Assembly: GCF_026586625.1 (NCBI RefSeq)
Contig: NZ_JAODIW010000008.1
Location: 93,332 to 157,331 of the forward strand
DNA: 64,000 nucleotides
Origin: Halobium salinum
GTDB lineage: Archaea > Halobacteriota > Halobacteria > Halobacteriales > Haloferacaceae
Direction: 5' to 3'
Below are positions 2,947-25,443 of this stretch, piece after piece (the first letter of the stretch is position 1; every line of letters begins with the position of its first letter). The translations under genes were made by a program, and so were the position numbers. A model generated the notes under the pieces. That model did no database searches, was not told the origin of the DNA, and worked only from the letters and a program-made list of their open reading frames with translations.

Positions 2947-3717
2947 TCAGTAGTGACCGAGGACGCCGAGCCGCCGCGCCCGCCGGCTGGCGAGACCGAA
3001 CAGGACGTAGCCGACGAGGAGGTAGGCGACCGCGGTGCCCGACAGGACGGCGAGCGCGGACGGCTCGAACTCCCAGAGGCGCACCCCCTCGCGCATGGCT
3101 CGGCCGAGCAGGCTACTTCCCTGTGCCAGCGGGAGCCACCGGAGGAACGGGTACTGTCCCAGCGGGGCGGCGATGAGCCCGACGAACGCGAACTGGACGA
3201 GGCTGAACACGTTCTCGATGCGCTTGTAGACGAGCGCCAGCCCGCCGAAGACGAAGCCGACGCCGACGGCGGAGGCGAGCGTGAGGAGCGCGAGGGGGAC
3301 GACGGTGAAGAGGTCGACGACCAGCGTCCGTCCGGTCGTCAACAGCATCAGCCCGAGAATCAGGCCGCCCCAGAGGAGGCTGAACAGGACGTTTACCACC
3401 ACCTTGACCGCGAACACGCGGCCGAACCCGTGAGGCGACATGAACAGCTGTTCGAGGGTCCCCCACTGCGCCTCGCGGGTCACGTCCCAGGAGAGGCCGG
3501 CGTAGGCGACGACGGCCATGGTGAACAGGAAGAACCCGACGACCAGCCCGCCGAGACTCTCGTCGAACGCCGCCCCGCCGACCGCCTGTCCGCCGTAGAA
3601 CAACAGGAGGAAGAAGACGTAGAGGCCGAACACCTGCGAGACGGTGTTGAGCGGGTATCTGACGAGGAGGAGCGCCTGCTTGCGTGCCACCGCCCGGAGT
3701 AGGGTCAGGGTCGTCAC
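2947..3717 (-). CDS. ABC-2 type transporter permease
   Basis: 256 aa with six hydrophobic segments. ATGA overlap with the upstream ATPase gene at 3714-3717. Confidence 0.75.
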   Translation of the reverse strand: MTTLTLLRAVARKQALLLVRYPLNTVSQVFGLYVFFLLLFYGGQAVGGAAFDESLGGLVVGFFLFTMAVVAYAGLSWDVTREAQWGTLEQLFMSPHGFGRVFAVKVVVNVLFSLLWGGLILGLMLLTTGRTLVVDLFTVVPLALLTLASAVGVGFVFGGLALVYKRIENVFSLVQFAFVGLIAAPLGQYPFLRWLPLAQGSSLLGRAMREGVRLWEFEPSALAVLSGTAVAYLLVGYVLFGLASRRARRLGVLGHY

Positions 3718-23504: not shown

Positions 23505-24143
23505 ATGCGAAGACGCCGCCTCCTCGGAGCCCTCGGCGCACTCGTCGGACTGGCCGGCTGTGGTGCCGGTACCGACGGTGGGTCGACGGTCCACACCGTC
23601 GGCCCGAACGCGACGAGCGACACCGACGAGGGCGCCGCCGACGCCGGCGCCGAAGGGACGACTGCGGACACGACCGCCACCGCGACCGGGACGGACGGGT
23701 CGAGTGGGACAGACGAGACGAGTGGGACGGGCGAATCGAGCGGGACGAACGGGACCGGCGGCGCGGGCACGGGTGACGGGTCGGCTTCCGACGGCGCCGC
23801 TGGTGCGAGCGGGAACGGAACGGGGAACGGAACGGGCGGAGGCGGACCCGACGAGAGCGGCGGCGGCCCCGGGAACGGCTCGGGGAGCGGTGCAGGCGGG
23901 GGCCCGAACGGCACCGGTGCCGGAGGCGGTACCCGGACCGGGGCGAACGGGACCGGCGCCGCCGACGGTGGTGGGACGAACAACGGGACGACGGGCGACC
24001 GGGCGCTCGGCAACGGGACGAGCGACGGAACAGTCGGCAACGGAACGGCCGGTAACGGAACTGGGGGCACCGCCGGAGGGAACGGGACCGGGGACCGGAG
24101 CGAAGACGACACCGGGAACGGCTCGAGCGGCGGCGCGTTCTAG
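23505..24143 (+). CDS. Tat-secreted lipoprotein, G/T/N/D-rich low complexity with about 15 N-x-T/S sequons
   Basis: Twin-arginine plus lipobox: MRRRRLLGALGALVGLAGC. The remainder is ...NGTGGAGTGDGS…NGTGNGTGGGG…NGSGSG…NGTGAGGG…NGTGAADGGGTNNGTTGD…NGTSDGTVGNGTAGNGTGGTAGGNGTGD…NGSSGG. Confidence 0.6.
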   Translation: MRRRRLLGALGALVGLAGCGAGTDGGSTVHTVGPNATSDTDEGAADAGAEGTTADTTATATGTDGSSGTDETSGTGESSGTNGTGGAGTGDGSASDGAAGASGNGTGNGTGGGGPDESGGGPGNGSGSGAGGGPNGTGAGGGTRTGANGTGAADGGGTNNGTTGDRALGNGTSDGTVGNGTAGNGTGGTAGGNGTGDRSEDDTGNGSSGGAF

Positions 24144-24252
24144 TCGGCCGCGGTCGGGGACGGTGTGGGATTCGCCAACAGACATATGCCGACCCCCGCC
24201 GTACCGTAGGTTGCAACCTGAGACGTACGCTTCGTCTACGATGGAGCGGTCG

Positions 24253-24395
24253 TCGGGTTGCGGCATTCCGGCACTCGCCCCCCGGCGGGTGTTTTCGAGC
24301 GCGTCACACCCCTCAGATACGTATATATCGATGCCCTTCGTAGAGGACGCCGTCTGCTCAGTCACTGGGCAGACATCGGAATGCCGCAACCCTTC
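24253..24395. repeat. Perfect 16-bp inverted repeat (GGGTTGCGGCATTCCG / CGGAATGCCGCAACCC) flanking a roughly 105 bp core containing a TATATAT tract and an internal hairpin
   Basis: Read directly from the sequence: the left arm is at 24255-24270 and the right arm at 24376-24391. Inside is GTCTGCTCAG-tca-CTGGGCAGAC. Beyond the arms lie direct-repeat-like gggtgttttcgagcg and ggggttttcccgagcg. It sits in a 476-bp intergenic region. Confidence 0.45.
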
Positions 24396-24619
24396 GCGGG
24401 GTTTTCCCGAGCGGGGCGGCTTCCGCGGAATGTAGGCAGTTACCGTCCGCCACGCGGGTGGTATCGCGCCTGCACTCTGTCACGGACTCCGAGCCCGTGC
24501 GAACGCACGTCTCGTACGCCTCGAGCGATGCGACTGGTCGGTGGATTACTGAGGACTCCCGGACGGTTTCCCGACGACCACCGGAACCGATTCCCACCCC
24601 GGCCCCGACTGACGGCACG

Positions 24620-24907
24620 ATGAGTGACCACGACGAGCACGGCACCGGCGAGGACTCGACGGACGTGGACGCTGAAGCGCGCGACCAGGCCGGCGACCTC
24701 GAGTCGGTCGCGCTGCCCATCACGGTGTCTGTCGACGTCGCCGAGACCATCCTCGAAGAGCTCGAAGCCGGCCGGTCCGTCGAGGCGGAGCTGGACCCGG
24801 AGCTGATGCCGCAGCTCGCGGAGCGAATCCGGTGGCAACTGGCGCACGGCCGACGAATCACGGAGCTCGTGGCCGAGTACGACGACGAGCGCGAATCGGA
24901 GGAGTAG
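24620..24907 (+). CDS. Small acidic hypothetical protein (95 aa)
   Basis: ATG at 24620 (MSDHDEHGTGEDSTDVDAEARDQAGDLESVALPITVSVDVAETILEELEAGRSVEAELDPELMPQLAERIRWQLAHGRRITELVAEYDDERESEE). The antisense 301 aa ORF is Ser-rich and was rejected. Confidence 0.4.
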   Translation: MSDHDEHGTGEDSTDVDAEARDQAGDLESVALPITVSVDVAETILEELEAGRSVEAELDPELMPQLAERIRWQLAHGRRITELVAEYDDERESEE

Positions 24908-25038
24908 GTCGCGAGCGGGTCGGCCCCGGCGGACGGCGAGGGCGAGCCGACCACGCCGGGTCGGCGACCTGTCGCCGACCCGGCATCCGGATTACGGGTA
25001 TGGAACCTTTCTTTTAGCGGGACCGTGAACCGACGCGC

Positions 25039-25443
25039 ATGGTCGCACTCGGACTGGTGGTCGCGCGCTTCAACGCGTCGGTCACCGAAGAGATGGAAGC
25101 ATCGGCTCGCGACGCCGCTCAGGACCGCGGCGCCGACGTGGTCGAGACGGTACACGTCCCGGGCGCGTACGACGCCCCGCTCGCCGCGGACCGCCTCGCC
25201 CGCCGCGACGACGTCGACGCCGTCGCCGTCGTCGGCGCCATCGTCACCGGCGATACGAACCACGACGAGGTCATCGGACAGGCCGCCGCCGACGCGCTCA
25301 CGCGAGTGAGCCTCGACCGCGACAAACCGGTCACCTTCGGCGTGAGCGGTCCCGGTCAGAGCGGCGCTGAGGCCCGGGATCGCGTCGGGAAGGGCGCCGA
25401 AGCGGTGGACGCCGCCGCCGACCTCACGGAGGCCCTGCCATGA
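25039..25443 (+). CDS. ribH: 6,7-dimethyl-8-ribityllumazine synthase
   Basis: 134 aa. MVALGLVVARFN…VVETVHVPGAYDAPLAA… matches the archaeal lumazine synthase pattern. Confidence 0.85.
   Translation: MVALGLVVARFNASVTEEMEASARDAAQDRGADVVETVHVPGAYDAPLAADRLARRDDVDAVAVVGAIVTGDTNHDEVIGQAAADALTRVSLDRDKPVTFGVSGPGQSGAEARDRVGKGAEAVDAAADLTEALP

Follow-up and report, generated by a model that had tools for sequence, protein, structure and literature searches.

A perfect inverted repeat in a long Halobium salinum spacer: a candidate clade-restricted RNA and a complementary site at the end of the upstream gene

The spacer and its inverted repeat

We analysed a 64-kb stretch of Halobium salinum DNA (the window; GC 69%) with a focus on a 476-bp spacer that carries a perfect 16-nt inverted repeat. 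The spacer runs from the stop codon of a gene for a lipobox protein (the lipoprotein gene) to the ATG of a gene for a 95-aa orphan protein (the small open reading frame, ORF). The gene order is Agl23-like gene (minus strand), lipoprotein gene, spacer, 95-aa gene, ribH and an aminotransferase gene (coordinates in Table 1). The two flanking genes are on the plus strand. As the initial annotation stated, the spacer is unusually long: it tops the length ranking of the 16 spacers in the gene calls of the 20-kb neighbourhood. That annotation read the repeat as the ends of a miniature inverted-repeat transposable element (MITE) or, alternatively, as the closing stem of a long-stem non-coding RNA. In our best reading the inverted repeat is the complementarity of two adjacent, predicted plus-strand RNA segments, not the ends of a mobile element.

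The left arm, GGGTTGCGGCATTCCG (24255-24270), and its exact reverse complement, the right arm CGGAATGCCGCAACCC, are separated by 106 nt, the unit from arm to arm being 138 bp. The sequences and the position of the left arm stand as annotated; the right arm lies at 24377-24392, not at 24376-24391. The repeat is non-random: none of 300 dinucleotide-preserving shuffles of the spacer (476 nt) produced a perfect inverted repeat of 16 nt, their longest ones measuring 7-13 nt. The TATATAT tract at 24322-24328, described as the only one of the region, is in fact the sole such heptamer in the entire 64 kb, and the internal hairpin GTCTGCTCAG-TCA-CTGGGCAGAC is present at 24352-24374 (H1 hereafter). The two imperfect direct repeats that had been placed just outside the arms do not flank them: gggtgttttcgagcg (24287-24301) is located between the arms, 16 nt to the right of the left arm, and ggggttttcccgagcg (24398-24413) is outside, 5 nt past the right arm. 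Each of them is the 3' half of a hairpin followed by a T-tract.

A conserved RNA-like unit and a lineage-restricted arm

Contigs of relatives were gathered through the clusters of the small protein and through ribH homologues. They gave four diverged lineages, i.e. Halobium and three uncultured relatives: H. salinum (the window, L121 and L122), L123, the L126 group (L126-L131 and L137-L144) and L136. By protein identity these form two sister pairs, the window with L123 and L126 with L136, and the order Agl23-like gene, lipoprotein gene, spacer, small ORF and ribH is common to all four. One further contig, L149, has the small ORF and stops 14 nt upstream of it.

BLASTN and alignments delimit a block conserved in the four lineages. 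It is composed of a AGATACGTATAT box, 21-24 unconserved nt and a region of ~130 nt which opens exactly at H1 and runs ~84-90 nt past the right arm (to ~24476). In the window H1 begins 27 nt after the centre of the TATA tract, and all four lineages have a W-W dinucleotide near -10. The population variants of the L126-type loci differ solely between the box and H1, leaving the RNA unchanged. A coding reading of the block was rejected: the lineages differ by indels whose lengths are not divisible by three.

The hairpin H1 comprises 9 pairs over the four lineages, with 2 compensatory and 2 one-sided G·U changes, and is present in 4/4 minimum free energy (MFE) folds. The following helix, P2, pairs the first ten bases of the right arm (CGGAAUGCCG) with CGGCUUCCG at 24417-24425 according to RNAalifold; its 9 pairs are invariant in the four lineages and form in 4/4 MFE folds. 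Within the right arm CGGAATGCCG is invariant, the L126 version of the arm being CGGAATGCCGACACCC. The two folds available to the interior of P2 are within 1.5 kcal/mol of each other in three lineages, and L126 shows the extended hairpin only; a swap of UUCG/CGAG (window) for CAUC/GAUG (L123) preserves this extended fold. The T-tract carried by the P2 hairpin loop is T2C in L123 (291-300), T3C in L126 (~3297-3308), T4C in the window (24398-24408) and T5C in L136 (~250-262). The third hairpin, P3, has 17 pairs, many of them G·U, with 1 compensatory and 3 one-sided changes.

Altogether the consensus fold contains 43 pairs, and 97% of its cells are paired, compared with 41-44% in slid controls; 3 pairs show compensatory changes and 8 show one-sided changes. 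The per-pair table includes 16 G·U cells, which would be A·C mismatches on the minus strand; hence the structure belongs to the plus strand. Trained on the four sequences, a covariance model scores 140 bits on the window and 128-149 bits on L123, L126 and L136. It finds no other credible match in the window, nor in Haloprofundus and the loci of other relatives which lack the small ORF and the lipoprotein gene. Rfam 15 gives no match over the window at gathering thresholds, nor over 24000-24800 at E<=10, and ARAGORN detects no tRNA or tmRNA. The covariance and fold analysis that the initial annotation had suggested returns a predicted RNA fold conserved in four lineages, but one that begins with the internal hairpin and continues to its right. 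The idea of a structured RNA is supported, with other boundaries: it is not a 138-bp unit closed by a 16-bp stem. On these comparisons the right arm is part of a predicted, conserved local helix, and the predicted 16-bp long stem is a lineage-specific addition.

The two arms also differ in their distribution. The right arm is kept in the four lineages, whereas the left arm and the terminator-like hairpin next to it (T1) are confined to the window and L123: a search of the L126-type loci and of L136 for the complement of the right arm that each carries gives no match at <=4 mismatches. Identity of the window to L123 is 16/16 for the left arm, 17/17 for the box and 17/18 for the right arm with its linker, amid adjacent spacers at 34-46%; the left arm has thus been strongly constrained since the two split. 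Because the lineages with and without it are sister pairs, one gain or one loss of the left arm suffices. Written as RNA, GGG-UU-GCGGC-A-UUCCG, the left arm repeats the 3' strand of P2 (GGGGCGGCUUCCG) and adds partners for the three bases that bulge from the right arm. The duplex of the two arms reaches -32.4 kcal/mol, whereas the native P2 strand gives -19.5 (window) and -16.6 (L123).

Two landmarks, the stop codon at 24143 and T1 at 24271-24296, are the grounds for placing the left arm in the 3' untranslated region (UTR) of the lipoprotein gene. In L123, T1 differs in two loop bases only. Upstream of it, the first half of the left arm is predicted to form a local stem, supported by RNAalifold (window and L123) and by MFE folds; its 5' strand GGTTGCAACC is 9/10 identical to L123, the hairpin that it encloses 34% identical. 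T1 contains two G·U pairs and the local stem two U·G pairs; as these would be A·C on the minus strand, the plus strand is favoured for both. When the inferred 3' UTR and the RNA are cofolded, the net gain over the separate folds is -13.1 kcal/mol in the window and -9.8 kcal/mol in L123. The 3' UTRs of Haloferax volcanii have a median of 97 nt for the first termination site, and 153 nt is within the reported range; the intergenic termination motif of this species is a T-stretch followed by C, and hairpins also terminate transcription (PMC7237163).

A conserved CCAACAGAC(A/C)TAT motif (24176-24189 in the window, 41-54 in L123) lies ~33 nt 5' of GGTTGCAACC. Should this motif act as a weak TATA-like box, the segment with the left arm (~24210-24296) may be an RNA in its own right, ~85 nt long, and not a 3' UTR.

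Table 1. Positions of the genes, arms, helices and signals at the locus (positions in the window)
Feature	Positions	Strand	Remarks
Agl23-like membrane glycosyltransferase gene		-	adjoins the lipoprotein gene
Lipobox, low-complexity G/N/T-rich protein gene (lipoprotein gene)	23505-24143	+	
Spacer	24144-24619		476 bp, from the lipoprotein gene stop to the ATG of the 95-aa gene
Inferred 3' UTR of the lipoprotein gene	24144-24296	+	153 nt; holds the left arm and ends in T1 and T4C; 5' part 61% identical to L123
Local stem, 5' strand GGTTGCAACC	24209-24218	+	GUUGCAAC at 24210-24217; partner of the left arm's first half, GGGTTGCGGC
Left arm GGGTTGCGGCATTCCG	24255-24270	+	perfect complement of the right arm
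T1, 9-bp terminator-like hairpin	24271-24296	+	24271-24279 / 24284-24292, then TTTTC
Promoter-like block CAGATACGTATATATCGA	24314-24331	+ (orientation inferred)	AGATACGTATAT invariant in 4 lineages
Conserved RNA-like unit	24352-24491	+	extent by covariance model
H1, 5' hairpin	24352-24374	+	9-10 bp, at the predicted transcript start
Right arm CGGAATGCCGCAACCC	24377-24392	+	5' strand of P2 (24377-24386) and start of the inner hairpin
P2 interior	24387-24416	+	a pair of short hairpins, or a single extended one with apical loop GGGGTTTTCCC (T-tract, 24398-24408)
P2, 3' strand CGGCTTCCG	24417-24425	+	conserved local partner of the right arm
P3, long hairpin	24431-24474	+	outer stem 24431-24437/24468-24474, inner stem 10 bp
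95-aa acidic orphan protein gene	24620-24907	+	
ribH	25039-25443	+	

Mobile element, RNA pair or leader

The reading of the 138-bp unit as a MITE, or as what is left of an insertion sequence whose terminal inverted repeats measure 16 bp, is largely refuted, and we hold it to be extremely improbable. It has for it the perfect repeats at the two ends of the unit and the unusual length of the spacer, and the haloarchaeal MITEs (MITEHsal and MITEHwa families, ISH2; PMC7002104, PMC3119063) are likewise short non-coding DNAs with inverted-repeat bounds. These elements are defined by termini shared with transposons, and typically have target-site duplications, several copies and an optional presence as a unit (PMC7002104). 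At the present locus, in contrast, the flanks GTCGTC| / |TTCGCG (window) and GCCTC| / |CCCAT (L123) are unrepeated, and the direct repeats, placed as they are, cannot be target-site duplications. Within the 64 kb neither a search at <=3-4 mismatches nor the covariance model reveals a second copy; there is nothing similar in plasmid and phage collections (blastn) or in viral contigs (two scans), and no transposase gene among the gene calls of the 20-kb neighbourhood. Moreover, the orthologous position is kept in four diverged lineages, conservation continues well past the supposed right terminus, and the interior consists of a conserved promoter-like box and a covarying hairpin. Finally, the two halves are inherited separately: the left arm is missing from L136 and from the L126-type loci, where the box, H1 and the right arm are all kept.

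Searches for the pairing segment in wider collections gave chance matches. A metagenome scan with CGGAATGCCG-N18-38-GGGRCGGCTTCCG returned three matches, all in coding DNA of unrelated organisms and without box or H1; they are chance matches. For the bare 16-mer, the 120 matches listed from the genome collection are all in unrelated bacteria, with ~280 expected by chance in 2 x 596 Gb.

Two other known structures were compared. Processing stems of the rRNA type have two 3-nt bulges, with a 4-bp helix between them, within a long stem; no such bulge-helix-bulge is found here, the 16-bp helix being perfect and without extension on either side. Archaeal replication origins have origin recognition box (ORB) repeats around an AT-rich unwinding element, with orc1/cdc6 adjacent. 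The Orc/Cdc6 Pfam family is absent from the 20-kb neighbourhood and the AT-only tract is just 7 bp, which does not fit an origin.

With moderate confidence we favour a clade-restricted small RNA (sRNA), or leader, together with a site in the 3' UTR of the upstream gene that would pair with it. The RNA unit would have its own TATA-like box (24322-24328), would be transcribed from ~24352 and would fold into H1, a hairpin closed by P2, and P3. The left arm would stand at the end of the lipoprotein transcript, just before T1 and its T4C, only in the H. salinum/L123 lineage, and would out-pair the native 3' strand of P2 by ~13 kcal/mol. The arms could pair in trans, between the sRNA and the lipoprotein mRNA's 3' UTR, or in cis upon readthrough of T1; this pairing would open P2 and link the fates of both transcripts. 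The promoter and its direction, the terminator, the transcripts, the pairing in vivo and its consequence are all proposed from the sequence. The spacing from box to start and the A/T pair near -10 match the haloarchaeal pattern (PMC4983044), and archaeal sRNAs binding 3' UTRs are documented (PMC4152357).

Trans-acting archaeal sRNAs on 3' UTRs (Sulfolobus solfataricus sRNA257(1) on Sso1183, and candidates in Haloferax volcanii and Pyrobaculum; PMC4152357) resemble the intergenic RNA described here by a promoter-like box of their own and by a long stretch that perfectly complements the untranslated 3' end of an mRNA. The present candidate differs in that its putative target is the gene immediately upstream, in the same orientation, that only part of the clade has the complementary site, and that the pairing segment would normally be shut in P2. 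It has no sequence or Rfam kinship to the described sRNAs.

Several points weigh against a dedicated RNA that pairs with the left arm. No clear CGAAA-type BRE (the element that transcription factor B recognises) is visible on the plus side of the TATA-like box, and the minus-strand reading (CGA-TATATA) is at least equal. A simple terminator and promoter scan, tuned to bacterial signals, found nothing, and T1, with its four Ts, failed it. The covariation score is equalled by 21/500 shuffles, so that its support, from four sequences only, is modest; P2 is invariant and therefore offers no covariation for or against it. Since two of the four lineages do without the left arm, the arm pairing is not essential to the RNA. 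Lastly, because there is no oligo-T between P3 and the small ORF, the "RNA gene" could be the 5' leader of that ORF.

This last possibility, a cis-regulatory leader, is the main rival; we regard it as rather unlikely. The box would then drive the mRNA of the 95-aa ORF, the fold would be the 5' part of a 266-nt leader with the T-tract of P2 as a point of premature termination, and the left arm would act only in cis in T1 readthrough. The RNA and the small ORF do occur together in 4/4 lineages and are both absent from the other relatives, and no AT-rich box lies just 5' of the ATG. As in attenuators and riboswitch leaders, a structured RNA with a hairpin, a T-tract and two folds of similar energy in the P2 interior stands 5' of a co-inherited ORF; the tract is T4C in the window and T5C in L136, the latter being a form at which 95% of H. 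volcanii transcripts terminate (PMC7237163). Against a leader, the tract is only T2C in L123 and T3C in L126, and from the fold to the ATG there are 145-234 nt of unconserved spacer (40% identity) of variable length. In addition, 72% of haloarchaeal transcripts are leaderless and long structured leaders are rare (PMC4983044), a common CCGRAAMC motif ~35 nt 5' of the ATG could be a separate weak promoter, and neither an Rfam match nor a ligand clue is available, in contrast to known leaders. More doubtful still is a bidirectional promoter, which we consider improbable: the near-symmetric TATA box would fire both ways, each transcript being a hairpin followed by CGGAAUGCCGCAACCC, with the left arm read on the minus strand. 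Either direction indeed yields a hairpin, 1-2 nt and an identical 16-mer, and the minus-strand box CGA-TATATA is near the haloarchaeal BRE/TATA pattern CGAAA/TTWT (PMC4983044). But the G·U pairs of T1 and of the 3' UTR stem would become A·C on that strand, the distance that separates the box from the left block differs by 23 nt when the window and L123 are compared, L126 and L136 show no conservation leftward of the box, and a minus-strand transcript would meet no T-stretch before running antisense into the lipoprotein gene.

The roughly symmetric placement of the arms about the TATA box (52 and 48 bp), with their invariance between the window and L123, could also point to a DNA-level element, the arms being binding sites of a regulator that flank and control the promoter, e.g. 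by looping. We find this quite improbable: two lineages have one site only, the right arm is fully accounted for by a conserved RNA helix with a conserved local partner, and the phase is not kept, as the arm spacing of 106 nt in the window is 130 nt in L123, i.e. 24 bp or ~2.3 helical turns more. The left arm might also be the neutral leftover of a recent local inverted duplication and have no function. Its resemblance to the 3' strand of P2 makes a local copy conceivable, yet an arm identical at 16/16 positions across lineages whose spacers are at 34-46% and whose adjacent protein is 70% identical, with a flanking T1 changed in its loop only, makes this very improbable.

Returning to the RNA with a complementary 3' UTR site, a more elaborate form of it is worth stating, which we consider doubtful. 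The locus would be a self-contained RNA switch, in which a short isoform ended at the T-tract (~55 nt) exposes the pairing segment and a long one (~130 nt) locks it in P2; since the T-tract varies, the isoforms may differ by lineage. A perfected decoy of the P2 strand would have appeared in the 3' UTR of the neighbouring mRNA in one sub-lineage, and the adjacent transcripts would cross-regulate. This may amount to 3' UTR control of the lipoprotein mRNA, or to a sponge-like control of the RNA and the orphan protein, and a switch of this type may not yet have been described in archaea. Bacterial-style sRNAs combine a hairpin at the 5' end, a conserved segment for pairing and a further hairpin that carries a U-tract, and sponge or mimic RNAs can titrate them. 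Likewise, a second RNA with a better-than-native complement could here titrate or remodel the first; the differences are an archaeal context without Hfq-type evidence and the location of the "mimic" in a neighbouring 3' UTR.

The surrounding module and its significance

The lipoprotein gene, the RNA-like block and the 95-aa gene together make a module of ~1.4 kb (23505-24907) set in the interval between the Agl23-like gene and ribH in the four lineages only. In Haloprofundus and four other metagenomic relatives the Agl23-like gene adjoins ribH, with no lipoprotein gene, small ORF or spacer similarity; the spacer between the two genes is 120-250 bp in the module-less relatives (Haloprofundus and others; L124, L125, L145-L148). 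On this distribution the module looks like an insertion or a clade-specific invention.

The product of the lipoprotein gene begins with a twin-arginine-like signal and lipobox (MRRRRLLGALGALVGLAGC) followed by a long low-complexity region rich in G, N, T and D; in the L126 group the homologous protein is of like type but has fewer residues (127 aa). The 95-aa protein is identical to a Halobium salinum hypothetical protein (Haloferacaceae; contig JBHSDS010000010.1, GCA_042651865.1). A profile search over 5.8 billion proteins gives homologues in just four clusters, and Pfam, NCBIfam, PHROGs and PADLOC give no family match; its AlphaFold model has two helices, at low confidence (pLDDT 57.6).

An imperfect inverted repeat (19/22; 24153-24174 / 24588-24609) brackets the whole spacer, its first base 10 nt past the lipoprotein stop and its last base 10 nt short of the ATG of the small ORF. 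The outer stem that it could form was rejected as a conserved feature: its duplex energy has a z-score of -2.9 in the window, and the equivalent ends in L123, L126 and L136 are ordinary. Between the small ORF and ribH, the window (~24958-24977) and L123 (~848-867) have in common a palindrome, GTCGGCGAC-CT-GTCGCCG. A TTTCTTTTAG box (~25010-25025 in the window) is found ~25-30 nt 5' of the ribH ATG in all lineages, the module-less ones included, and is likely to be the promoter of a leaderless ribH. As ribH carries this conserved box of its own, a riboflavin (ribH) leader was excluded.

For the leaderless haloarchaea, control by way of 3' UTRs has been put forward as the principal post-transcriptional route, and to our knowledge established pairs of sRNA and target are few in this group; with both partners encoded next to each other, a pair of this kind would lend itself readily to testing. 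The case also calls for caution in scans of long spacers, where a perfect inverted repeat around an AT-rich core mimics a MITE; here the comparison shows two independent RNA-level features. The scope is narrow, i.e. one small clade, within which the perfect complementary 3' UTR site, present in two lineages and missing in two, offers a natural with/without comparison. If transcribed, the unit would be a previously undescribed family of structured RNAs, limited to Halobium and a few uncultured Haloferacaceae.

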